From Candidatus Magasanikiibacteriota bacterium (GTDB taxonomy: Bacteria > Patescibacteriota > Patescibacteriia > Magasanikbacterales > UBA922), in the NCBI GenBank assembly GCA_021648085.1, contig JAKITS010000001.1, forward strand, positions 324,948 through 388,947: 64,000 bases of DNA, in the 5' to 3' direction. The notes below the pieces were generated by a model that had not been told where the DNA came from, made no database searches, and worked only from the letters and a program-made list of their open reading frames with translations. Below, one piece after another: positions 7,836 to 61,024 of the stretch (the stretch's first letter is position 1; each line of letters opens with the position of its first letter). A program made the position numbers and the translations under genes.

Positions 7836-8233
7836 AAAAAATTGTCAGCTCGCCTTGATTTTCTATAAGAAACTGCGAAGGCAAATAATAATATAAAAAT
7901 AAATAAAAGTAATATAAAATTCCAAAATGTTAATACTTTTTTTGCATTTAGGTAAAGTACCATAACTAAAGCGAAAGATACAACCACAGAACATGTAAAA
8001 CTACGCCTAACATGAATATACAAAGGGATTATCCTATTTGTAAGTTTTCTAGAGATAATAAAAAAAGGCATTGAAAAAGTACCTAAAAGCGCAAAGTAAA
8101 AACTTAGATAGAAAAAAAAGAAACCGAGCTTACTACCTTGAAATGGGTCTATATTTACAAGTACAAAACCCCAAGAAATCCAGCACAAAATTGCAGCAAA
8201 GCTCATTATAAATAGATATTGCCGTAAACTCAT
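7832..8233 (-). CDS. hypothetical membrane protein
   Basis: 133-aa ORF with 3-4 hydrophobic helices. Overlaps the proS start by 4 nt. Confidence 0.45.
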   Translation of the reverse strand: MSLRQYLFIMSFAAILCWISWGFVLVNIDPFQGSKLGFFFFYLSFYFALLGTFSMPFFIISRKLTNRIIPLYIHVRRSFTCSVVVSFALVMVLYLNAKKVLTFWNFILLLFIFILLFAFAVSYRKSRRADNFL

Positions 8234-8246
8234 AAATTTTCAACTC

Positions 8247-8546
8247 TTAAAGTAAATATCTTATTGCATCAATTTCATTCTTACCAACTTTTTTATTTAT
8301 CTCTTCCACGAGTTCTTTTTGGCGCAATCTTAACTCTTGTGCCATCACAGAGCTTGCACAAGAAACTGTCAAAGTTCTGTTTTTTAAAAATAATGGCCTT
8401 GTTAGTGTTACAGAATCCTTTCCAAAAAATTCTTTCATAATTTCTTCGGCAATTTCTATAATAGAAGAAGTCTCTATCTGTTTTTGTAGAGTTGTGTTTT
8501 GGTTAAATTTATTTTTTAGCTCTTGTCCAAGTGGTGTAAAACTCAT
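8247..8546 (-). CDS. hypothetical small protein (DUF721-like?)
   Basis: 99-aa ORF downstream of the helicase. Size and context are reminiscent of DUF721. Weak. Confidence 0.4.
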   Translation of the reverse strand: MSFTPLGQELKNKFNQNTTLQKQIETSSIIEIAEEIMKEFFGKDSVTLTRPLFLKNRTLTVSCASSVMAQELRLRQKELVEEINKKVGKNEIDAIRYLL

Positions 8547-8564
8547 AATTTATATAATTTCTAT

Positions 8565-11500
8565 TTATATCTTCCCACAAATTAAGTCATTTTCAAAATC
8601 CTCCAAGCCTTTTAGTGTTTTTTCATATTTACTAATATCTGGAAAATCTAAGTTTCTTATCTTTTTATCCACAGCAACAATTAGTTTTTTCAATCTTTCC
8701 ACATCTTCAGAAGTTATGTCATAAGGAAGGCAGTGAATTTCATCTAATTTTGTAGGATTCAGAAATTCCAAATACCCACGGTTTACAGTATATTTTGAAT
8801 AATCTCGTGAGAATTCTACCAAAAGTTTATAAAAAATAATCTGTCTTTTATAACCATGGAGTTGTACTTTTTTGTCTGGCAAACTTTCCTTCCAGCTCAA
8901 TTTATAACTTCCTGTTTTAAAATCATAAACCTCCATTTCTCTTGTTTCTTCATTTGGAACTATTTTATCAATTTTTCCTGTTATTTGTACATTTTCCACA
9001 AAAACTTGTTGCATTCGAAAATTTGTTTCTATCCAGCTTGTCGCAGAAATTCTATCTTGGTATTTATTCAAATATATTTTCCAAACCTCATTTCCCTTTT
9101 TTAAATACTTTTCAAAAATATTTTCTCTCATGTTTTCTCTTTCCAGGTGTCCTTTGAAGTATTTCTGAACTTCTTCAATATTCGGTTTAATTTCATTTTT
9201 AGAAATATGGTTATGTATACTCTCTACCGTCGCGTGCATTGCAACCCCATAAGAAAGAAAAGGGGTTTTTGAAGTTGGAAATCTCAGTAAGTTTTGTTCA
9301 AAAAACTCGTGCGGTCCGCCACGCATTACATTTAGAAAATTGTTCAGATGCGTGACACTTAAAATATATTTATCTAAAATTGGTTTTAATACAGATTTTT
9401 CATCCAAAGATAAAGGGCTAAACGACGGCAAACTTGTTTTTTCCAAAGAATTCACAGTATCCAAAATATTAGATTTTATTTCTTTTGCTTCAATTTTATA
9501 CTCCACACCTTCAAAAATAGAAGTTTCCAAAAATGGTACTCGGAGTGAATCTCTACCATTTGTCTTCTTTTTATAACTTGTCACATACAAATTACTTTTT
9601 GCGCGAGTAATTGCTACAAAAAATAAACGCAAATAATCATCTATTGTATCTCCCGCAGGATCAATCGATAAATTTTTTGGGAAAGCAATCATATCTCTGG
9701 ATTGTGATTTTGCCCAAACTTCATTTTGACAATTCAATACAAAAACTGTATCAAACTCCAACCCTTTTGCTTTGTGTGCTGTCAAAAGCGTGATAGCGCT
9801 TACTCCACCAATATATGGACTTGTGTCTGTTATCGCTAAATTGTGCATCTCGTATATATCCACACAGGAAACCAAATCAAAAAGTTTTGGGGCTGAAATA
9901 TCAGAAGTATACGATCGCACAGTGCTTACAAAAGTGTTCAAACTAGATAAAAATTGTATATATTCTGATGGATTTTTATTATATTTATCTTTGTGAAAAT
10001 AAAATCGACGAAATGAAGATGTAAATTTATTTTTAATTTCATCTGCTGGACCAATCAATTCATCTAACAAACTTCCCATTGGTTCTATGTGAGCTCGAGA
10101 AGCAAGATCCAAAAACCAATTTGCTATTTTTTGTAATTCTTTATTTTCACTTTCCAGCATTACATCTATCCACCTTCCTCTTGTGTCGGTCTTTTGTTTT
10201 TTGTATGCTTCAATTGAAAGTTTCCAAATAGTAGACCTATCCAAACCCCAAAATGGAAAAGATAAAATTGTCGACAAAAAATTCTGAGAATAATAAATAG
10301 AATCTTTTGCGAGAGAAGAGACAAGTCTAGCCATACAAATAATCTGATTTATATGAACTTCTTCCAACACATTTCTCTGACGCTCGTATTGAATTGGGAT
10401 TTGCTTTGCAAACAAAAATGGTGCAATTTCTTGAAGTTGTCTGTGATTTCTTGCAATCACAGAAATATTATCCAAACTCACCCCATTTTCAATTTTATAT
10501 TTTATTTCATTGGCAATATATTCGTATTCGTGAACAGCTGTATCAAAAGTATGTGCTGTAATTACACCTTCTTTTATATCTGGATTTGCAGATTCCAATT
10601 TTTTTTCAACCTCCTCCAACCTATCTACCAATCTATCATCCCCTTGAGAAATTACACGGTGTGCAAAATCTACAATTGCAGGAGTGGAGCGATAATTTTT
10701 TACCAAAGTTATCAATTTTGTTTCAGGATACTGCTCTCTAAATTGTAATATATTATTTATCTCTGCTCCTTGAAATTTATATATAGCCTGATCATCATCC
10801 CCAACAACCATTACATTCGGTTTACCTTCGTTTACTGGATTTTCTGTCAGCATATGAATAATTCTCATTTGTGCTTCGTTTGTGTCCTGAAACTCATCGA
10901 CAAGAATATATTGATATTTTTCTTGAAGTTCTGCCAAAAGCCCGGGTTTTTTTAATAAAACTCGAATCAAATCCAAAATCATATCATCAAAATCTACCAA
11001 CCCAATTTTTGCCATTGCTTTTTGATATTTTTCATAAACCAATCCCAAAGATATATTTCTATCCAATTGATATGCATCTTTTAAGCGCTTTTTTTTAGTT
11101 TCCTTATCTCTACCTATCCAATTATCCTTCCATTTTGTGATTGGTTTTGTACTATTTTCTTCTATTGCCTGCTCGTACGCATTCAAAAGTGAACGCAATA
11201 AAATATCTTTATAATCCAAAAGGCTAATATGTTCTATTGGCAATTTTGGTAAATCTATTTGTTTAATTTGAGAAATTAAAGTTGGTATTTGCTCTTTTAT
11301 TTTTTTGGAAACTCGTGGCTCAAAAAAAGGGATTAAAATTTCTTCTATTTTTGCAAAACAATCTCCATTTGATTTTACAATTTTTTGATATTCTTCTGGT
11401 GTAATTCCAGCTTTTTTCAATTTACTAATTTTATTTTTTATACTATTTAAATATACAAAAGTTCCATTACGCTTTGTACTAAATGAATCTGAAAATAATA

Positions 11501-11899: not shown

Positions 11900-12736
11900 T
11901 TATATTGTCAGCAATAGCAAAGCAATTCCAAAAAGTCCTAATCCTACAAATTTTATAGCCACATGCTTTTCCTTGAAATATACATTTCCAAAAATAATAG
12001 TCCACAAAATTCTTCCAGATCTTTTGATAGAAATTATAATAGACGGTGGTGCATAAAGGTAAGCAAAACTTTCCAAAACCGTACCAACCCCACTAGAAAC
12101 TGATTGCGAAAGAATTATTTTTTTCTTTAAAAATTTGATAGGATTTTCTCCTGCTATAAATTTGGCAGTCACCATAAAATATATTGCCAAAATACCAGTA
12201 AAAATCATTTGTTCGGCTTCCACACTATTGAAATTTGTAATATTATATTTGAATAAACTTATAGTTCCAACTGCTAAAACAGAAGTTAGTAAAACATACT
12301 TCACACCTCTCTTTCCTATCCCATGATTTAATGTTAGAAAAGCCAAGGCAAATAAAATTACAACAATACCTATAATATTTTGAAAACTAAGTGCATAACC
12401 AACAAAATAATCTACAATTAATAATAAGGGAATAGTAAGACTACTCAAAAATCCAAAAGTGCTACGAGATGCTAGCACAACACCTTTTAATCCAAAATGA
12501 ATTAGGAAAATCTCCAAAATTAGACGCAAACCAAAAGTAGGAATAGAAGCTGGATCAAATAATAATTCCTGTCTAACAAAAATTACCAAAATTAAAAAGA
12601 ATACGAAACTTGCCAACAAACTAAGCGATGCAAAAGTATAAGGACTTTCTTTTTTTTGTTCAATCTCGTGTTTTCCAATTGATACAGAAATTTCATGAAA
12701 AAATTCTGCAATCATTACTAATAAAGCTCCAAACAT
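11900..12736 (-). CDS. polytopic membrane protein (about 10 TM, DMT/EamA-like; unconfirmed)
   Basis: 278-aa ORF dominated by hydrophobic helices. Confidence 0.5.
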   Translation of the reverse strand: MFGALLVMIAEFFHEISVSIGKHEIEQKKESPYTFASLSLLASFVFFLILVIFVRQELLFDPASIPTFGLRLILEIFLIHFGLKGVVLASRSTFGFLSSLTIPLLLIVDYFVGYALSFQNIIGIVVILFALAFLTLNHGIGKRGVKYVLLTSVLAVGTISLFKYNITNFNSVEAEQMIFTGILAIYFMVTAKFIAGENPIKFLKKKIILSQSVSSGVGTVLESFAYLYAPPSIIISIKRSGRILWTIIFGNVYFKEKHVAIKFVGLGLFGIALLLLTI

Positions 12737-12826
12737 ATTTTTATAAGATTTACCAAACTATTTGATATATTTTAATCTAATTACTTTATATTCTAAACTA
12801 AAAAAGCTCTTTCTACAAATGCATAT

Positions 12827-12856
12827 TTGACTTCTTTCTTTTTTTATTGATATAAT
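12827..12856 (+). promoter_or_regulatory. sigma70-type promoter for the ncRNA (TTGACT - 18 nt - TATAAT with TG extension)
   Basis: TTGACT at 12827-12832 and TGATATAAT at 12848-12856. The GC-rich RNA begins about 7 nt downstream. Confidence 0.6.
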
Positions 12857-12862
12857 AAAATT

Positions 12863-13076
12863 ATCCGGTCAGTAGTGTGAACCGCGTCGAGTAGGTCCTC
12901 GGGGTAGGATTCGAAATATGACAAAGTTTTCCCCACACACTGCTGACTGGTTCTAGTTCTTTTCCTCTGCAGCCGCACGAGCTCTCACCAAGGTTTTCAC
13001 ACCACAGGTCTGCGTATTTTCGCTCCCGCCCAACAACCAGCCAAAAAACCTCACACACAGCTCGTGCGGTTTTTTT
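12863..13076 (+). ncRNA. unclassified structured ncRNA (about 213 nt, about 50% GC in a 30% GC background)
   Basis: Bounded by a near-consensus promoter and by a helix CCGCACGAGCT/AGCTCGTGCGG followed by T7. Internal long-range helix CCGGTCAGTAGTGTG/CACACACTGCTGACTGG with G-U wobbles. The internal ORF (12861-13058, minus) is judged spurious. Confidence 0.5.
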
Positions 13077-13177
13077 ATTTTATTGATCTAGCAAAAAGAT
13101 TGTAAACATTGATTTAATTTTACTAAAATGATACATTAAAAATAATAGCTCATTACAAAATTAAATAGGAGGAGAAA

Positions 13178-13606
13178 ATGACTAGACTAATAGACAATGT
13201 TTTCAAAGATTTTTATTATTACGAAATAGATCTATCTCCATTTTTTGGGTGCAGGGTTCCTAAAAAATTTTTATATTATGCTGAAAAACTTAAATATTCT
13301 TTTAAAGCTCCATACAAAATAGATGGAAATGAAGTAGAGTGTTTATTTTTTACAGACTTTAAAGATATAGAAAAAATTTGGCATCACAGCTTATTGAGAC
13401 TAATTCGAACTGCAAGATTTGTTATTGGAATTCCTTTGCAAACCAACCAAGGTTTGATATACAAAGGTGAGATTTTAGTCGCACAAACATATTTGCGTCC
13501 AGAAGATGCAAGTGGTAAAATTTCTTCACTTCCTTACAGATCTAGAAAATCGAAAAAAACTACAATGATTCTCCATCCTGTTTTTTACAATCCATCCTTT
13601 TTCTAA
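13178..13606 (+). CDS. hypothetical protein (142 aa)
   Basis: Strong RBS AGGAGG, own TTGTAA/TAAAAT promoter, and the terminator at 13608-13642. Confidence 0.55.
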   Translation: MTRLIDNVFKDFYYYEIDLSPFFGCRVPKKFLYYAEKLKYSFKAPYKIDGNEVECLFFTDFKDIEKIWHHSLLRLIRTARFVIGIPLQTNQGLIYKGEILVAQTYLRPEDASGKISSLPYRSRKSKKTTMILHPVFYNPSFF

Positions 13607-13607
13607 A

Positions 13608-13642
13608 TAAAAAGTCCCGCTTTACACGGGACTCTTTTTTAT
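13608..13642 (+). terminator. Rho-independent terminator (AGTCCCG-loop-CGGGACT plus T-run)
   Basis: Hairpin followed by CTTTTTTATTT directly after the stop of the 142-aa ORF. Confidence 0.7.
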
Positions 13643-13734
13643 TTACATTTGCAACAACTCTTGCATTCATTCTCACACTCTTTACAACTTTTATCAGTTG
13701 TAATCTCTGCTTTACAGCTCTTGCATTCTTTCAT
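13639..13734 (-). CDS. possible 31-aa Cys-rich micro-ORF (MKECKSCKAEITTDKSCKECENECKSCCKCK)
   Basis: Complete ATG...TAA ORF below the ORF-track size cutoff. 8 Cys in 31 aa. Contains two copies of the 11-nt repeat CTCTTGCATTC. No clear RBS. Confidence 0.25.
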   Translation of the reverse strand: MKECKSCKAEITTDKSCKECENECKSCCKCK

Positions 13735-13829
13735 AGCTTTGTATTAATAATTATCTTTTTTATTATAACCTATTTTTTGAAAATAAAAAACCACCCTTTT
13801 TAAAAGGTAGTTTTATTTTTAACTATTTT

Positions 13830-14732
13830 TTAAACTTTTTTCACTGTGAAATTCGTTTCATCTGTAAAAACTACATTGAAAATTGGCAAACCTTTTGCAA
13901 GATGTCCAACAGTTGTAAGTAATTGCCGAGTTCCAAGTTTCTCAACTTCAACTTTATAATCATCTACACTAACTTCAAAACCCACAAGTTCAGAAATATT
14001 CTGAGCCTCGTAAGTCCTCATAAAATTTGCAGCTTGTGGATGATTTACAAACATTTGTTCACCATCTACTTCTGGCACAACTACTGGAATCATGCTCTCT
14101 GAATTTATTTCAGTGTCTACTGTTAAAATATTTACAACAGCACCTTCCTGGTGCTCACCTTCCAAAACAACAAACTCCAAATAGTCGTTTCCAGACCAAA
14201 GCAATTCATAAAAAGATCTTACAACAGCCTGAACAAGCTCTTTACGAACTCCATATTCTTCTGGATTTTTCATCATCAATTTTATATGTCCACAACCAAC
14301 ATTGTCTGCCTGCATAAGTGCATTCAAAAGATTCTCACGCAAATTGGACACTGGGTTTTGTATCATTGAAATTATATCTGATAAACTCATATCCAAACTC
14401 ATACTTTTCATTAAATTCTCTATCGCATGAGTATCTGTATGCATATAAAATTTTCCAAAAATCTGACAATACTTTTCCATGATTTCTCTCATTTGAACAA
14501 TATCAATTGTGTTTCCAGAAACTTTTTCTGCAGTAGTCAAAGCTAGTACAAACTCACCGGCATTTCCACCAGGAGTTCCAACAATTCCAATTTCTCCACG
14601 ACCATCTACACAAGATTCAAATTGATCTGTCAAAAGACTGTTCATTTTCACAAACTGAAAATTTTCTACAATATGTTTTTCGATTTGCTTTGCTGTTAGC
14701 ACTTGCTTCTCCTGTTGTTGACTATTTGACAT
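13830..14732 (-). CDS. hypothetical protein with beta-carbonic-anhydrase-like metal-site motifs (C41-x-D43-x-R45, H98)
   Basis: 300-aa ORF 19 nt downstream of atpC. SCVDGRG matches CxDxR at the typical position and His98 aligns with the beta-CA HxxC position, although the Cys is replaced (HTDTH). Speculative. Confidence 0.5.
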   Translation of the reverse strand: MSNSQQQEKQVLTAKQIEKHIVENFQFVKMNSLLTDQFESCVDGRGEIGIVGTPGGNAGEFVLALTTAEKVSGNTIDIVQMREIMEKYCQIFGKFYMHTDTHAIENLMKSMSLDMSLSDIISMIQNPVSNLRENLLNALMQADNVGCGHIKLMMKNPEEYGVRKELVQAVVRSFYELLWSGNDYLEFVVLEGEHQEGAVVNILTVDTEINSESMIPVVVPEVDGEQMFVNHPQAANFMRTYEAQNISELVGFEVSVDDYKVEVEKLGTRQLLTTVGHLAKGLPIFNVVFTDETNFTVKKV

Positions 14733-27569: not shown

Positions 27570-27669
27570 AATTTATTTTAATTAATCTTTTAATCTTATA
27601 ATATCACAATTAACAAAATTGAGTAAATAAAAAGTAACACATATTAGGTTACTTTTTCGCTCGACGGGT

Positions 27670-28119
27670 CGGATTCGAACCGACGACCAATTGGTTACAC
27701 TCTACCCTCTGTTCCCAGAAGAAGTGGACTATATTATCACCCTCGCCTAAACCGCGTAAATCGCGGACGTTAGGGTGCGAAGCGCTTCCCAACAAATTGC
27801 AAACAATCTGTAAGTACTCCCGTAAAGGGATAGTCTCTGAACCTTCCGAATATAAGTCCTTATTACACAGACTATGCAAAACACATAAAGTGTACATATT
27901 CCTTTTTGTAATCTTTGGACTATACAAGGCTTGGCTGCTGATTGCCCTTGATATAGGGAACTGTTATTAAATACCATTTCTATTAAAAGCGTATTTAATG
28001 ACAGTTCCCAATTCATCGATTGGGTTTCCAGCAATTCACTTCGTTATTCACCTTGATGTTTCCACCAAGGGCTGCATTTTATATATACAGCCAACTGCTC
28101 TACCACTGAGCTACCGTCG
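27670..28119 (-). tRNA. tRNA-Asn(GUU), split by an intron in the anticodon loop (5' exon 28086-28119, 3' exon 27670-27707)
   Basis: Minus strand. 5' half TCGACGG-TA-GCTCAGTGGTAGAGC-A-GTTGG-CTGT and 3' half TAA-CCAAT-TGGTC-GTCGGTTCGAATCCGAC-CCGTCGA-G. Acceptor stem and T-arm are perfect. The spliced anticodon loop is CUGUUAA. Confidence 0.75.
27708..28085 (-). other. group I-like self-splicing intron (about 378 nt) inside tRNA-Asn
   Basis: Exon GGCUGU pairs with intron GCAGCC 9 nt into the intron (P1 with a U-G wobble at the splice site). P2 is CCTTGGTG-GAAA-CATCAAGG. CAGAGACTA motif in the P7 region. Intron ends in G (omega-G). The ORFs called inside it are spurious. Confidence 0.65.
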
Positions 28120-34748: not shown

Positions 34749-34793
34749 AGTCTATATATTATAACAAATTTTTTAAAAAGTACAATGCTTTTA

Positions 34794-34832
34794 AAACAAA
34801 AACAAACCTATTCAAAGGTTTGTTTTTGTTTT
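34794..34832. terminator. long hairpin terminator AAACAAAAACAAACC-loop-GGTTTGTTTTTGTTT
   Basis: 15-bp stem. A near-identical stem recurs at 41666-41702. Confidence 0.65.
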
Positions 34833-34840
34833 AAAAGTTT

Positions 34841-41448: not shown

Positions 41449-41582
41449 CACAGATAAATTTATTGACTTAAATTTTCCGCGACCCCGTCTCACGGTCTTC
41501 ACCTTACCTCTTCGGGTAAACTCAGACATCGCTCCGACTTTCAAATCCCTGTCGAGAGTGAAGCAAGGGCATGTTGATTCCT

Positions 41583-41665
41583 TTCGCTCCGACTCAAGCC
41601 GGGGTGTTGCGTGCTCTCACACCCTTCGAATCCCTGCCGTGACACAAGACTTTGTGTCACTCTCC
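41583..41665. repeat. tRNA-linked structured repeat core (Gln-locus copy)
   Basis: Over 85% identical to the 60791-61024 units. Hairpins GGGTGT/ACACCC and GTGACACAAG/CTTTGTGTCAC carry compensatory changes relative to GGGTGC/GCACCC and CAGGCAAAG/TTTTGCCTG. Confidence 0.6.
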
Positions 41666-41702
41666 AAACAAAAACAAACCTTTTCAGGTTTGTTTTTGTT
41701 TG
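41666..41702. terminator. hairpin AAACAAAAACAAACC-ttttca-GGTTTGTTTTTGTTT abutting the tRNA-Gln 3' end
   Basis: 15-bp stem identical to the one at 34794-34832. Confidence 0.6.
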
Positions 41703-43811: not shown

Positions 43812-43897
43812 AAAAATATTATATCATAATATTTTTAAATAGTAAAAAACAAAATACACAGAATTTTCTGTGTATTTTGTTTTAACTTTTCGTTTTT

Positions 43898-47366: not shown

Positions 47367-47452
47367 AATAAAATTTACAAATCCTATTTAATTATGTAAT
47401 ACTATTAGTGTATCAATTTAAGTAAAAAAAAGAAACCCAAAAGGAGCGTAAA

Positions 47453-47797
47453 ATGTCTATTCCTGTTTTTATTTTTAGAAACCAAGAACATTTTATAAAA
47501 TATATCCAAAATATACTCCCCAAAAAAGATACAAAAACAACAAAAGATACTAACTTAAGTATAGATATTGACTTAAAACATGGTTTAAGTATTGGTGCAA
47601 AAAGGTTTAAAGATATACAAAAAAAACCTTATTATATTTTTACACATTATACTAATAACTTTGATGGTGTCGCAGGTAAACAGGCTATTGTAAAATTTAT
47701 TTTCCATATTATAAGCCCAGATCAATACCGAGACTTAGTTCATTATCTTGAAGTTATGTTAGGACTTGAAGTGTATGAATATTCACACACAAAATAA
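47453..47797 (+). CDS. hypothetical protein (114 aa)
   Basis: RBS AAAGGAG. Followed by the terminator at 47796-47824. Confidence 0.5.
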   Translation: MSIPVFIFRNQEHFIKYIQNILPKKDTKTTKDTNLSIDIDLKHGLSIGAKRFKDIQKKPYYIFTHYTNNFDGVAGKQAIVKFIFHIISPDQYRDLVHYLEVMLGLEVYEYSHTK

Positions 47798-51238: not shown

Positions 51239-51312
51239 CAAAAAAAACATCTTAATTGGTGTTTTTTTATTTTTAATGTAAAATAGATATAAATTCTACA
51301 AAGGAGGGAAAA

Positions 51313-51594
51313 ATGGAAGCTGTAAGTATTAGTTCTGCAATTAATTCAATCTTAATAATCATTGGAATTCTGTATTTTACAGGAATTGCTCTTTACACAT
51401 TTACAATATTAGTAGATAAATCAAAAAAGTTTACGCAAAGAAAAATATTAAAAGTAATGATTCTTTTTTCTATACCTTTATTTGTCATAACTTTTTCAAG
51501 TATCTCAATGTCAAGCTCTGGTGCAAGTATTTTTATATACTGTTCACTTTTTATCTTATCAATCTTTTTTGTAATAACTTGGCACAAAACATAG
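51313..51594 (+). CDS. small 3-TM membrane protein, cassette 1
   Basis: RBS AAGGAGGG. Followed by the terminator AAAGCACCTAAACTGGGTGCTTTT. Confidence 0.5.
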   Translation: MEAVSISSAINSILIIIGILYFTGIALYTFTILVDKSKKFTQRKILKVMILFSIPLFVITFSSISMSSSGASIFIYCSLFILSIFFVITWHKT

Positions 51595-51597
51595 TAA

Positions 51598-51624
51598 CAA
51601 AAAAGCACCTAAACTGGGTGCTTT
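51598..51624 (+). terminator. cassette terminator 1 (GCACCTAAACTGGGTGC hairpin)
   Basis: First of three near-identical hairpins (see 52028 and 52436). Confidence 0.7.
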
Positions 51625-51696
51625 TAATTTACAAAAATATAAAAAAATGGTAGTATGAAGTAGGTCTTATTTTTTTACACCCAAAAGGAGGTACAA

Positions 51697-52020
51697 ATGT
51701 CTGAATTTCTAAATTCAATTGTAAATATTAATACCTACTCACTATTGCACTTTTTAGTTATAATTACTTTTATATTTATTATGATTTCAATAATTTGTCA
51801 GGTTTTTTTGAAAAAATATTATTATATACTTGTTATTTCAGTTTGTTCTACACTCTTGTTTTCTGTGATTACTTTTTCCACAGGACTTTATTATATGATA
51901 TTCGACTTATCTTCAGAACTTAGTATTATGATATATGTAAGTTTAGTGCTTATTTTTATAAATATGATCATAAATGCTTTAAATATGAACTGGGTGTTAG
52001 ATAAATATAAAAAGGTATAG
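51697..52020 (+). CDS. small 3-TM membrane protein, cassette 2
   Basis: RBS AAAGGAGG. Own TTTACA/TAGTAT promoter. Followed by terminator copy 2. Confidence 0.5.
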   Translation: MSEFLNSIVNINTYSLLHFLVIITFIFIMISIICQVFLKKYYYILVISVCSTLLFSVITFSTGLYYMIFDLSSELSIMIYVSLVLIFINMIINALNMNWVLDKYKKV

Positions 52021-52027
52021 AAACAGT

Positions 52028-52053
52028 AAAGCACCTAAATTAGGTGCTTTTTT
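52028..52053 (+). terminator. cassette terminator 2 (GCACCTAAATTAGGTGC hairpin)
   Basis: Repeat of the terminator at 51598. Confidence 0.7.
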
Positions 52054-52055
52054 AA

Positions 52056-52083
52056 TTGACAAAATATCTAAAAAATGATAATG
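52056..52083 (+). promoter_or_regulatory. cassette promoter (TTGACA - 15/16 nt - GATAAT), fused to the preceding terminator repeat
   Basis: TTAATTGACA follows the terminator in copies 2 and 3; copy 1 has TTAATTTACA. Confidence 0.55.
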
Positions 52084-52122
52084 TAGTGTTTGAAAATAAA
52101 CCAAAAAAATAGAGGAATACGC

Positions 52123-52446
52123 GTGAATTATCTAGAAATTCTAAAAACACTTATAATGTTTAGTTTATTTTCAATAGCACTGCACATTATATTTTATATG
52201 TTTTTTGCAGGAAATCCCTATTCAACATTTGGTAAATCTAACGCAACTTTGGAAAAAACATCCACATCTAGCACTTTGACAATCACAGGACTTACAAGTT
52301 TAGCCTGGATTTATCTAGCTTTTGTAGAAAAAATAGAGATGAGTACAAAAATTACAGCAATTTGCTTTATTATAATCTGTATTTTTTTTGGAATTTTAAT
52401 ATCCCAATCTAAAACATTTAAAAGTGATAATCCACGAAGCACCTAA
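52123..52446 (+). CDS. small 3-TM membrane protein, cassette 3 (GTG start assumed)
   Basis: The ORF-track start at 52090 lies before the predicted -10 (52077-52082) and TSS. AGAGGAA RBS precedes in-frame GTG at 52123. Confidence 0.45.
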   Translation: MNYLEILKTLIMFSLFSIALHIIFYMFFAGNPYSTFGKSNATLEKTSTSSTLTITGLTSLAWIYLAFVEKIEMSTKITAICFIIICIFFGILISQSKTFKSDNPRST

Positions 52447-52462
52447 TTTAGGTGCTTTTTTA
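52436..52462 (+). terminator. cassette terminator 3 (GCACCTAATTTAGGTGC hairpin)
   Basis: Repeat of the terminator at 51598. Confidence 0.7.
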
Positions 52463-52523
52463 ATTGACAGCTTTGATAAAAAAATATTATGCTAAATAGA
52501 GTTCTTTAACAAAGGAGTTCCCA

Positions 52524-52820
52524 ATGAATGAGTTCATTTACAGATCGCTTTTTGTTGTTGCAGATTTTGCTTGCTTATTTACAATTGTTTTATTACTTCC
52601 ATATTATGTTTATCCAAGAATAAAACTCAAACTTATTCCACGAGCTAAAAATTTAAAAGCATTATCTTTTTCTTCTTTTACAACAGCATTTCTATATTTT
52701 ATATGTTTTCTAGAAAATTATACTTGGTATTTTCTACTTACTTCTATAATATTTATAGTCTCATCTATGTTTTTTATGGGGCAACTAATAGAATATAAAC
52801 GCAAAACAACGGGTAAATAA
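52524..52820 (+). CDS. small 3-TM membrane protein, cassette 4
   Basis: RBS AAAGGAG. Different terminator (CCCGTTGTTTTTTT). Confidence 0.5.
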   Translation: MNEFIYRSLFVVADFACLFTIVLLLPYYVYPRIKLKLIPRAKNLKALSFSSFTTAFLYFICFLENYTWYFLLTSIIFIVSSMFFMGQLIEYKRKTTGK

Positions 52821-52848
52821 CCCGTTGTTTTTTTAAATTATTTATGTT

Positions 52849-53919
52849 TTATCTTCCAAACAGCTCATCTATAATACTAATTATATCTTTTTCTTTAGCG
52901 ATTGGAAGTAAACTATTCAATCTCTCCCCCATTTCTTTCATTTTATTTTTATTTTGAAGTAAGTCTTTTATTACTTTTGCCAATTCTACTCCACTTATTA
53001 AATTATTATTAAAACTAAGTAAAGCACCGCTAGACGATAAAAATTTTACATTATCCTCTTGATGACCCTCGTTTGGAATTATAATTACTGCCTTTTTTAA
53101 TGCTGCAACCTCAGTTAAAGTTCCAAAACCTCCACGCGCTACCACCAATTCAGAAATAGCATAAGCGTCTTTCATTTCTTCTGTAAAAAAATCAAATTGA
53201 AAATAATTTTCAAACTCTTTAAATTTTTCATTATCCTCACTTTTATTTTTTCCAGTCAAATGAATTATCTGGCATATTCCTTTTAAGTGTGGCAAAGACT
53301 CTATTACAAGCCTGTTTATTTTTAAAGATCCGGTTCCACCTCCCATTACAAAAACAACTGGCAAGTCTGATTTTAATCCAAAACCTTGAAAAACTTTTTC
53401 TTTATTACCAATTAAAATTTCTTCTCGAACAGGGTTTCCAAGCCACTCAACTTTTTTTGCAGAAAAATTTACAACTCCCTCCTCCAAAGCTGTGGTTATT
53501 TTTATTGCAAAAAATGACATTATTTTATTGGAAAGCCCAACTTTTACATCTTGCTGATGAATCCAAGTTGGAACTCCCATAATCCACGCTATGAAATGCA
53601 CTGGAACAGAAACAAATCCGCCCGCAGAAATACACAAGTCTGGTTTTTCTTTCCACAAAATTTTGAATGACTGCAAAAAACCAAAACAAATTTTAAATAA
53701 ATCTGTAAAATTCCAAAAAGACAGATAACGGCGAAATTTTCCAGAAGAAATAGCAAGAAATGGTATGTTATATTTTTTAACCAACTCTTTTTCTGGTCCA
53801 GTCTTTGTGCCAACCCAAACAAATTCTATTTTCTTATCTTTTTTTTCTAACACTTCTTTTATTGCAAGCAGTGGTGTTACTGGACCAAGTGTCCCGCCAC
53901 CAGAAAAAATTATTTTCAT
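52849..53919 (-). CDS. murG: UDP-GlcNAc:lipid I N-acetylglucosaminyltransferase
   Basis: GGGTLGPVTP N-terminal motif and GT28 C-terminal domain. Overlaps ftsW by 4 nt. Confidence 0.88.
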   Translation of the reverse strand: MKIIFSGGGTLGPVTPLLAIKEVLEKKDKKIEFVWVGTKTGPEKELVKKYNIPFLAISSGKFRRYLSFWNFTDLFKICFGFLQSFKILWKEKPDLCISAGGFVSVPVHFIAWIMGVPTWIHQQDVKVGLSNKIMSFFAIKITTALEEGVVNFSAKKVEWLGNPVREEILIGNKEKVFQGFGLKSDLPVVFVMGGGTGSLKINRLVIESLPHLKGICQIIHLTGKNKSEDNEKFKEFENYFQFDFFTEEMKDAYAISELVVARGGFGTLTEVAALKKAVIIIPNEGHQEDNVKFLSSSGALLSFNNNLISGVELAKVIKDLLQNKNKMKEMGERLNSLLPIAKEKDIISIIDELFGR

Positions 53920-57126: not shown

Positions 57127-57220
57127 TTTTTTATTTTTAAAAGAGCTTCACTATATTTAGCTTAGCAGACAAAACATAAAAACACCAAATTTGGTGTTTT
57201 TATGTTTTTATCATTAAGTT

Positions 57221-60673: not shown

Positions 60674-60790
60674 ACTATTTTATTTATATTTATTTTATCA
60701 TTTTTATTTTTAAAAAACAAGCTTTATTTTTAAATCAAAATCAAAAAAGTTTTTTGATTTTAAACTATTCTAAAAAAGTGGCAGGACTTT

Positions 60791-61024
60791 TTTCGCTCCG
60801 ACTCAAGCCGGGGTGCTACGCGCTCTCGCACCCTTCGAATCCCGACACAGGCAAAGACTTTTGCCTGCTCTCTCTCCTTCACTTCGTTGCGGAAAGGGCG
60901 GGATTCCTTTCGCTCCGACTCAAGCCGGGGTGCTACGCGCTCTCGCACCCTTCGAATCCCGACACAGGCAAAGACTTTTGCCTGCTCTCTCTCCTTCACT
61001 TCGTTGCGGAAAGGGCGGGATTCG
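60791..61024. repeat. two perfect tandem 117-bp direct repeats downstream of tRNA-Ser, each ending with a copy of the tRNA 3'-terminal ~18 nt
   Basis: TTTCGCTCCG at 60791 and again at 60908. TGCGGAAAGGGCGGGATTC at 60888-60906 and 61005-61023 (the latter is the real tRNA 3' end). Overlapping ORFs on both strands are spurious. Confidence 0.8.

Follow-up and report, generated by a model that had tools for sequence, protein, structure and literature searches.

A new, narrowly distributed small-RNA family with a C-rich loop between atpC and uvrD in Candidatus Magasanikbacteria

What is the GC-rich stretch that stands behind a strong promoter between atpC and uvrD in a Candidatus Magasanikiibacteriota bacterium? 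The stretch belongs to a window of 64,000 nucleotides (nt), positions 324,948 to 388,947 of contig JAKITS010000001.1 (assembly GCA_021648085.1). An original prediction, made from the letters of the window, had placed at 12827-13076 a non-coding RNA on the plus strand bounded by a promoter and a terminator, and had named 6S RNA or a lineage-specific RNA as possible identities. We found such a gene, conserved at the syntenic site in relatives. The best explanation is that it is an independent, accessory small-RNA (sRNA) gene with a sigma-70-type promoter, belonging to one clade of Candidatus Magasanikbacteria; a lineage-specific RNA is what the comparison brought out. Its features are listed below, where L081, L156, L160 and L161 are contigs of relatives.

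12814-12856, plus strand: promoter, with TACAAA at 12814-12819, the -35 hexamer TTGACT at 12827-12832, TG at 12848-12849 and the -10 hexamer TATAAT at 12851-12856.
12857-12864, plus strand: start region; AAATTA is common to all forms.
12865-12950, plus strand: domain 1, with the 15-bp closing helix P1 (12865-12879 with 12936-12950, two G-U pairs) and a conserved interior of 56 nt.
12951-12972, plus strand: pyrimidine-rich linker between the domains, drifted in sequence (39% identity between the window and L081).
12973-12983, plus strand: 5' arm of the stem, CCGCACGAGCU, pairing with 13059-13069; identical in the window, L081, L156, L160 and L161.
12984-13058, plus strand: loop of 75 nt, G-poor and C/A-rich, with the block CUGCGUAUUUUCGCUCCCGCCCAACA common with L081 and the 3' segment CCAAAAAACCUCACA present in all forms.
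13059-13069 and 13070-13076, plus strand: 3' arm of the stem, AGCUCGUGCGG, and U7, a presumed intrinsic terminator, unchanged in all forms.

The promoter hexamers are 18 nt apart and agree with the consensus at 11 of 12 positions. A consensus scan finds no other such site within 12000-14000, so that the near-consensus promoter with its TG is the best one in these 2 kb, as had been expected. TACAAA-N7-TTGAC, the TG and the -10 hexamer are kept in L081, L156 and L160, and TATAAT(T/A)AAATTA is common to these three and the window. From the promoter spacing, transcription would start near 12863, and the predicted transcript is about 214 nt long in the window (about 210 nt had been proposed) and about 105 nt in the L156 type. 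Positions 12864-13069 have a GC content of 53% versus 31.8% across the window, which bears out the GC-rich stretch noticed earlier; the peak value over 100 nt is 0.57, among the highest outside the tRNAs. Could the region be coding? Mechanical open reading frames (ORFs) of 33-65 amino acids overlap it on the minus strand. A conserved reading frame is excluded, because the window and L081 differ by indels of 1, 2 and 3 nt and half of the region is missing in L156, and the region is non-coding as predicted. A peptide beginning at AUGACAAAG... (12918) was also considered and rejected; it would have 12 residues in the window and about 62 in L081, divergent after residue 2.

How well is the gene conserved? 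The proteins flanking the RNA match L3J07_01675 and L3J07_01680 of a Candidatus Magasanikbacteria genome (Patescibacteria) with full identity. The gene for p278, an EamA-like protein, is a divergently transcribed neighbour of the RNA, and a search with p278 led to L081, a 6.4-kb Logan contig whose protein is 83% identical. Upstream of the p278 relative, this contig carries a full-length two-domain homologue of the RNA in the same relative position and orientation as in the window, with a perfect TTGACA-18-TATAAT promoter and with the stem and U tract as in the window. The conserved blocks of the two RNAs are 75-92% identical, and 18 of 20 positions agree in the 3' arm and U tract; identity falls to about 40% in the linker and in a portion of the domain 2 loop. 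For comparison, it is about 64% at the synonymous sites of adjacent genes and 48-50% in the intergenic flanks, with 48% for the intergenic DNA upstream of the RNA promoter. The RNA gene, bounded by its promoter and terminator, is under purifying selection.

A search with AtpD gave P0122-P0124, which at 94% identity are closer Magasanikbacteria than the GTDB representatives and whose contigs keep the order atpC, small genes, uvrD, dciA. In the gap before uvrD of L156, L160 and L161, nhmmer detects a short form of the RNA, directed away from uvrD as in the window. The family is thus documented in five RNA-bearing sequences of three lineages, and in all three the locus lies between atpC and uvrD and points away from uvrD. 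The short form begins with TACAAA-N7-TTGACA, an extended -10 element and AAAUUA, and after 7 nt it enters the stem at CCGCACGAGCU. Its loop of 64 nt contains UCCAAAAUUCCCCUGUUUCCCCCA twice and then CCAAAAAACCUCACA(U/C)C, and is followed by the identical 3' arm and U6-7. It folds as a single 12-bp stem with an open loop (z = -4.6). When the forms are aligned, the window RNA corresponds to the short form with an insert of about 105 nt after AAAUUA and ahead of the stem. Because the short form has neither domain 1 nor the linker, the conserved unit of the family is, judged by alignment, the 3' half (12973-13076), and domain 1 (86 nt) appears from the same comparison as a lineage-specific gain at the 5' side in the window and L081. 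The emphasis that had been laid on the 15-bp helix was therefore right in that the domain exists, and misplaced in that the domain occurs only in the window and L081 and is not the part conserved across the clade.

There is a further question, whether the RNA is needed by its hosts. In L157, L158 and L159, whose DNA downstream of the element is identical to that of L156/L160, the cassette from TACAAAC through the T run is wholly absent, and the junction is clean, with no target duplication. Since the cassette is absent from three sister contigs, an essential RNA is ruled out; the RNA is accessory and not a housekeeping one.

The fold was then compared between strands and relatives. On the plus strand the minimum free energy (MFE) is -69.6 kcal/mol with z = -4.95, and none of 200 shuffles is as good, while the minus strand of the same region gives z = -1.9. 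Both the MFE and the centroid structure of the window RNA consist of two separate domains. The 15-bp helix with G-U pairs that had been proposed does form (12865-12879, two G-U pairs), although its 3' arm had been put at 12944-12960 and lies in fact about 9 nt away, at 12936-12950. These G-U pairs are compatible with the plus strand only. The interior of domain 1 carries AGUAGGU, CUCGGGG, CGAAA, AUGACAA and an exposed UUUCCCC at 12928-12934, and GGGGTAGGATTCGAAAT occupies 12901-12917. Its folding is ambiguous in the window, where a rod-like model has -31.0 versus -35.6 kcal/mol for the MFE structure; in L081 the rod is the MFE structure. Between the window and L081, P1 shows one compensatory and two one-sided changes and the rod model of the interior one further compensatory and five one-sided changes; overall, two compensatory and eight one-sided changes are counted, with 96% of the cells paired. 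The absence of conservation or covariation in relatives, which was to argue against a functional RNA, is not what is seen: conservation is clear, and covariation is present but thin, coming from two sequences.

The stem of domain 2 has 11 bp, extendable to 13 bp (12971/13071), and runs into the T7. Of the GC helix and T7 that had been taken for the end of the RNA, the T7 (13070-13076) stands, and a compact hairpin does not, as the stem of 11-13 bp spans 75 nt. Stem and U tract presumably form an intrinsic terminator and a stabilised, protected 3' end, as their sequence suggests. When the window and 1.9 Mb of relatives' loci were scanned for a GC-rich stem of 10 bp with a loop of 30-100 nt and T5, only this RNA family matched. 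A copy of the stem arm with one mismatch inside uvrD (9304-9314) is kept neither in L081 nor in L156 and was set aside as chance.

Might the whole element act as DNA, as an inverted-repeat cassette serving as a recombination site or mobile mini-element, to which the promoter and the T run are incidental flanks? Its stem arms are invariant and show no covariation, strains either have it or lack it with a clean junction, and the ends of five contigs fall within about 250 nt of the locus. Against this, the -35 hexamer, TG, -10 hexamer, start region and U tract are kept in the correct order and spacing, domain 1 shows compensatory and G-U-compatible changes, no target-site duplication is seen at the junction, and there is a single copy per locus and none other in the 64 kb. 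We consider a DNA-level cassette very unlikely.

Does the RNA belong to a known class? With gathering thresholds, Rfam reports three tRNAs in the whole window, and nothing relevant appears at the RNA at E<=5 over the window or at E<=10 on a 501-nt slice (12700-13200). ARAGORN likewise finds three tRNAs, all elsewhere, and no tRNA or transfer-messenger RNA (tmRNA) at the locus. The narrow-slice mode of Rfam, with its lax filters, is able to catch weak matches, as it recovered a group I intron in a split tRNA gene at about 27640-28020 that the gathering scan had missed. The RNA matches no curated family and is a new, narrowly distributed sRNA family; the Rfam search that had been proposed as a check yielded no confident match, and calling the class unresolved was fair.

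The recovered intron is an observation in its own right. At about 27626-28020 on the minus strand, a tRNA gene is seemingly interrupted by a group I intron (Rfam Intron_gpI, 31.9 bits, E = 1.8e-6, below gathering), and beyond the intron region come a T-arm and the 3' acceptor half (GTCGGTTCGAATCCGAC...); it was missed both by ARAGORN and by Rfam at gathering thresholds.

6S RNA, one of the identities first left possible, has to be given up. RF00013 and its variants give no covariance-model match at gathering or at E<=10. The 5' end pairs about 70 nt downstream (12936-12950) and not with the 3' end; the fold has two domains where 6S RNA has a rod around a central bubble, one stem and a 64-nt loop make up the entire short form, and three sister contigs have no such gene. 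The signal recognition particle (SRP) RNA, tmRNA and RNase P RNA had already been doubted, rightly so: Rfam at E<=10 and ARAGORN are negative and the gene is absent from sister strains. By eye, GGGGUAGGAUUCGAAAU looks like SRP helix 8, a T-loop or a tmRNA 5' end, but its key positions change in L081 and it has no Rfam score. A housekeeping RNA (6S, SRP or similar) so divergent in the Candidate Phyla Radiation (CPR) that Rfam fails to recognise it would fit the strong promoter, the enrichment in GC and a length close to that of 6S, and the group I intron proves that gathering-level misses occur. Yet no sub-threshold match exists even at E<=10 on the 501-nt slice, a stem closing the 5' and 3' ends and a central bubble are both lacking, close relatives have only half of the RNA, and the gene is absent in three contigs. 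We find this reading hardly credible.

Several further classes find no match either. 6C RNA (RF01066) gives no Rfam match, and one stem with a loop of 64-77 nt stands here instead of two hairpins. Membership of RsaE/RoxS finds no covariance-model match in Rfam, although one trait of that type, an unpaired UUUCCCC, is seen in all three lineages, as a functional resemblance only. Against a Y RNA speak the perfect-duplex stem, the lack of an Rfam match and the lack of a TROVE gene among the neighbours listed. The 9-mer TTTCGCTCC, common with GC-rich units linked to tRNAs elsewhere in the window, comes with no wider similarity and is taken as chance.

How far does the family extend? Among 80 AtpD-anchored GTDB loci, neither nhmmer nor blastn finds a homologue of the RNA. 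In the closest of these, L001, whose AtpD is 87% identical, the interval from atpC to uvrD contains no RNA; its GC-rich island (419-939), one of those checked in relatives, resembles a GC-rich coding gene. AtpD relatives at 87-89% identity have other genes after atpC (a nuo-like operon or others), and in L082, which has a p278 relative at 54% identity, synteny is lost. A metagenome scan with CTGCGT(N)TTTTCGCTCCCGCC, a block specific to the window and L081, gave 13 matches, all by chance, on contigs of 51-67% GC; a family-wide pattern would be AAAAACCTCACANNAGCTCGTGCGGTTTTT. Four scans of viral contigs gave either 59 matches, judged as chance by an nhmmer check, or none, and blastn against phage and plasmid collections gave matches at chance level only (23-39 bases, E about 0.2). 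There is no second copy of the RNA within the 64-kb window.

Directly downstream of the RNA lies another gene with a promoter-like element in front of it.

13109-13137, plus strand: second promoter-like element, TTGATT at 13109-13114, 17 nt, then TG-A-TACATT at 13129-13137; it belongs to the downstream gene.
13178-13606, plus strand: p142, an ORFan-family gene, regarded as context and not as a proven part of a system.

Are the RNA and p142 one unit? The second element has the form TTGAT(T/A)-17-TGaTACATT across the sequences; TTGAT..TGATACATTAA does not vary among the window, L081, L156 and L160, and it is kept in the contigs that have no RNA cassette. L157, L158 and L159, where the cassette is absent, still hold an intact p142 homologue. 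Because p142 has its own conserved promoter, kept where the cassette is missing, the RNA and p142 are, as far as sequence can tell, separate transcription units which travel together in close relatives. The p142 product is 48% identical (E = 3e-41) to that of the gene downstream of the short RNA in L156, and in all three lineages the RNA stands about 100 nt before the start codon of this gene family, in the same direction. The L156 homologue is annotated with 166 residues and is probably over-extended at the N terminus, as the Shine-Dalgarno sequence GGAGGAGGAGGAG precedes Met26. In a word-indexed search p142 is a singleton; HMMER over 1.84 billion representatives returns the protein itself, one relative of 140 residues and weak matches to Big_2 repeats. 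No match was found in Pfam, NCBIfam or PADLOC, and the sequences of the PDB give chance-level matches only (best E = 0.14). An AlphaFold model from the single sequence has a predicted local distance difference test score (pLDDT) of 38 and was not used.

The gene p142 has a strong Shine-Dalgarno sequence in a genome mostly without them. Across the gene starts of the window (13160-13180, 47435-47455 and 51680-51700 among them), about 57 of 60 genes have only A/T-rich DNA before the ATG; those with a clear GGAGG site are three, p142, ORF 47453 and ORF 51697, each encoded on the minority plus strand.

The RNA could still be a cis element of p142, that is a leader, attenuator or insulator which sets read-through, or it could form a ribonucleoprotein (RNP) with the p142 product. 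This would agree with the constant position directly upstream of the p142 family in three lineages, with a p142 family as narrowly distributed as the RNA, and with a terminator stem which closes across 64-77 nt and could respond to a factor bound to the loop. But p142 has its own extended -10 promoter after the terminator, three contigs keep this promoter and the intact gene with the cassette cleanly absent, and the short form has no antiterminator pairing. What is more, the lineages are close (AtpD 94%), so that adjacency may simply be inherited, and p142 is only weakly Big_2-like, with no known RNA-binding domain. We therefore hold a cis or RNP relation to be unlikely. A riboswitch or attenuating leader as a class was rejected on similar grounds, as the short form has no alternative pairing and the downstream gene, with its own promoter, persists without the cassette.

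One more arrangement with p142 deserves mention, a module like type III toxin-antitoxin systems in which the RNA would be an antitoxin against a p142 toxin, as in ToxIN. The order of promoter, RNA, terminator and small protein gene, the 2.7 tandem units of 23 nt in L156 and the hypervariable, accessory character of the locus all recall such modules. The RNAs of the window and L081 have no tandem repeats, however, these being confined to L156, L160 and L161. A toxin-antitoxin relation is also made unlikely by the p142 homologue that persists intact without the RNA, in three contigs and under its own promoter; nor does p142 match anything in PADLOC or Pfam, and its matches in PDB sequences are at chance level. 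We rate this module as highly improbable, even below the DNA cassette.

The interval between atpC and uvrD is itself a strain-variable hotspot (window 11900-14732; L156 11788-12873; the contig ends of L157-L161). It holds the ORFans p278, p300 (300 residues), p142 and a Cys-rich peptide, of which p278 and p300 are additional in the window. L157/L158/L159 and L160/L161 have direct repeats of (A/G)GACATTTCTA there, and in five independent assemblies the contig ends at most about 250 nt from this spot. The Cys-rich peptide ORF, MKECKSCK...CKKCCKCK, adjoins atpC across relatives, with 31 residues in the window and about 44 in L001; the contigs examined carry no annotation for it. Behind the ORF comes a terminator in the form of a strong GC hairpin (GTCCCGC...GCGGGAC).

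Window 13639-13734, minus strand: Cys-rich peptide ORF.
L156, about 11960-12055: Cys-rich peptide ORF.
L160, about 8212-8307: Cys-rich peptide ORF.
L001, 10444-10578: Cys-rich peptide ORF.

Variation is also seen inside the atp operon of more distant relatives with AtpD at 87-88% identity. In L165-L167 a small gene matching 23S_rRNA_IVP stands between atpG and atpD, and in L168-L170 two genes matching 23S_rRNA_IVP/bAvd and a peptidyl-prolyl isomerase gene stand between atpD and atpC. It is odd to meet there four-helix-bundle genes of a type associated with diversity-generating retroelements.

The anatomy of the RNA gene, its conservation, its modular evolution and its dispensability between strains are established. 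Then what might the RNA do? The loop gives the main hint. Its length stays within 64-77 nt across the lineages, and it is poor in G and rich in C: 12% G and 40% C at 12982-13058 (the loop and two stem bases), 9% and 37% in the L081 loop, 3% and 45% in the L156 loop. Its MFE is 0.0 kcal/mol in L156 and -3.0 in L081, in neither case better than shuffles. In sequence the loops of the three lineages are nearly unrelated, save for the 3' segment CCAAAAAACCUCACA; the window and L081 share an invariant block of 26 nt, their loops contain some G, and L156 has a tandem duplication of 23 nt (2.7 units). Outside the stem and tail, no more than three 7-mers are common to all lineages: UUUCCCC, and CAAAAAA with AAAAAAC, which overlap in CAAAAAAC. 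UUUCCCC occurs twice in the loop of L156 and, in the window and L081, in the bulge of domain 1. With composition kept, structure absent and sequence turning over, the best explanation is that the loop would be the working part of the molecule.

Our best guess is that stem and U tract would terminate transcription and stabilise the 3' end, and that the loop, together with the domain 1 bulge in the long form, would present C-rich single strands in trans. Candidates for the displayed motifs are UUUCCCC, CUCCCGCC and CCAAAA, and domain 1 would expose the same UUUCCCC that the short form carries in its loop. The simplest partner would be some other RNA with a run rich in G, after the model of the UCCC-motif RNAs RsaE/RoxS or of 6C RNA in Actinobacteria; a protein with affinity for C-rich single-stranded RNA might take its place. 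We put forward this reading, a new sRNA with C-rich motifs which pairs with G-rich RNA or binds such a protein, only tentatively and with somewhat less than even confidence, the claim on its identity included.

A number of points weigh against it. The mechanism and the partner are inferred, and so are transcription and the ends of the RNA, which are read from the sequence. RNAduplex over the whole 64-kb window gives scattered matches in coding regions and no outstanding site near a start codon, runs of GGGG occur often on the coding strand, with 73 in the window, and 57 of the 60 genes of the window have no Shine-Dalgarno sequence, the usual target of UCCC sRNAs. The loop sequence differs almost entirely between close relatives, which is unusual for a pairing seed. 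The covariation score of two sequences is reached by 112 of 500 shuffles and carries no statistical weight, and as the stem arms never vary, pairing of RNA and a DNA inverted repeat are not distinguished there. That a p142-family gene always adjoins the RNA might instead point to a cis or RNP relation. Finally, only five RNA-bearing sequences from three lineages are available.

The turnover of the loop fits composition-driven protein binding at least as well as base pairing, and this leads to the main rival, a protein decoy or scaffold. The loop would then be a platform defined by its composition for a candidate binder of C-rich single-stranded RNA (Rho, a KH protein or one with a cold-shock domain, CSD), which it would titrate or tether in the manner of CsrB/RsmZ or CrcZ. 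Loading sites of the termination factor Rho are about 70-80 nt long, C-rich, G-poor and unstructured, and with a loop of this kind Rho is the foremost candidate. While the sequence turns over, the length of 64-77 nt, the depletion of G, the richness in C and the lack of structure are all kept; CCAA(A/C)A recurs three times in every form, together with UUCCCC, the duplication of 23 nt in L156 multiplies these motifs, and a strong promoter suits stoichiometric titration. On the other side, the partner protein is a candidate only, recurrence of the motifs is partly expected of any C/A-rich sequence, the invariant 26-nt block and some G in the loops of the window and L081 look more sequence-specific, and the gene is dispensable in sister strains. 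We regard a decoy as possible, if on the unlikely side, and the titration or tethering it would bring about is to be judged the same.

The boldest form of the idea is a new class of CPR sRNA, modular and strain-variable, whose C-rich 'display loop' of 64-77 nt acts as a decoy, most provocatively for Rho, or as part of an RNP with p142; we think this rather unlikely. If the loop were indeed a decoy for Rho or another global RNA-binding protein, a new regulatory principle would follow. An ordinary base-pairing sRNA would still be a new family, with a modest reach, in three lineages so far. CPR bacteria have tiny genomes and few recognisable regulators, the genome of the window has almost no Shine-Dalgarno sequences, and our search of full-text literature found no paper describing regulatory RNAs in Patescibacteria/CPR. 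A strain-variable, strongly promoted sRNA of unusual architecture therefore offers a handle on gene regulation in CPR. It is one of few concrete sRNA candidates in these bacteria, its known range being small, and the family illustrates cleanly how an RNA evolves by modules: with promoter and terminator stem unchanged at one locus, one lineage has duplicated its loop and another has taken in a structured domain of 86 nt.

The window holds other elements of note away from the RNA. At 60775-61023, immediately 3' of a tRNA-Ser gene (minus strand), there are two tandem GC-rich units of about 117 nt, 96% identical, in each of which the final 17 nt repeat the end of the tRNA (GAATCCCGCCCTTTCCG); a related piece of 59 nt (41576-41634, 93% identical) adjoins tRNA-Gln. 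These units have no Rfam match at E<=1, and their folding z values are weak (-2.0 and -1.1); elements that once entered tRNA T-loops may have left them behind. After tRNA-Lys, about 1.6 kb (51240-52849) contain no ORF of at least 120 residues and hold palindromes and repeats (51591-51646/52017-52075, 83% identical; 52029-52061/52437-52469, 97% identical). A/T-rich perfect palindromic hairpins of 17-22 bp, for example CAAACAAAAACAAACCT/AGGTTTGTTTTTGTTTG, lie between convergent or tandem genes and probably are a family of bidirectional terminators.

34788-34837: palindromic hairpin (34794-34831 is 92% identical to 41666-41701).
41665-41702: palindromic hairpin.
57171-57208: palindromic hairpin.
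43846-43883: palindromic hairpin.

How does the RNA compare with known systems? The 6C RNA of Actinobacteria (RF01066) consists of two short hairpins, each with at least six C in its loop, and is thought to pair with G-rich targets. Loops rich in C runs on stable stems are common to both; here there is one stem with a very long loop, and the phylum is another. Y RNAs, which associate with Ro60, resemble the family in their size of about 100 nt, terminal stem, large and variable pyrimidine-rich internal loop and 3' oligo-U. They differ in that the stem here is a perfect duplex, with no bulged Ro-binding helix, no tRNA-like module as in YrlA, no Rfam match, and no rsr (TROVE) gene nearby in the regions examined. 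ToxI-like antitoxins share the order of promoter, RNA, terminator and small protein gene, and L156 shares their tandem repeats, but the window and L081 have no such repeats, the protein gene outlives the RNA, and p142 is unrelated to ToxN in sequence searches.

With CsrB/RsmZ and CrcZ the RNA has in common a strong expression (predicted here), short motifs repeated in unstructured RNA and a copy number which changes by internal duplication; its motifs are CCAA(A/C)A and UUCCCC and not GGA or AAnAAnAA, it is much shorter, and it has no Rfam match. The last comparison is with the sRNAs of Firmicutes that carry UCCC or other C-rich motifs, RsaE/RoxS and other Rsa RNAs (see Geissmann et al. 2009, PMC2790875). 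The family has no similarity to RsaE/RoxS in sequence or covariance model, one giant loop of 64-77 nt takes the place of small hairpin loops, the loop sequence is not kept in close relatives, and the host is mostly without G-rich Shine-Dalgarno targets. What it shares with RsaE/RoxS is an own promoter, a 3' end of the Rho-independent type and several unpaired UCCC/CCCC motifs in its loops.

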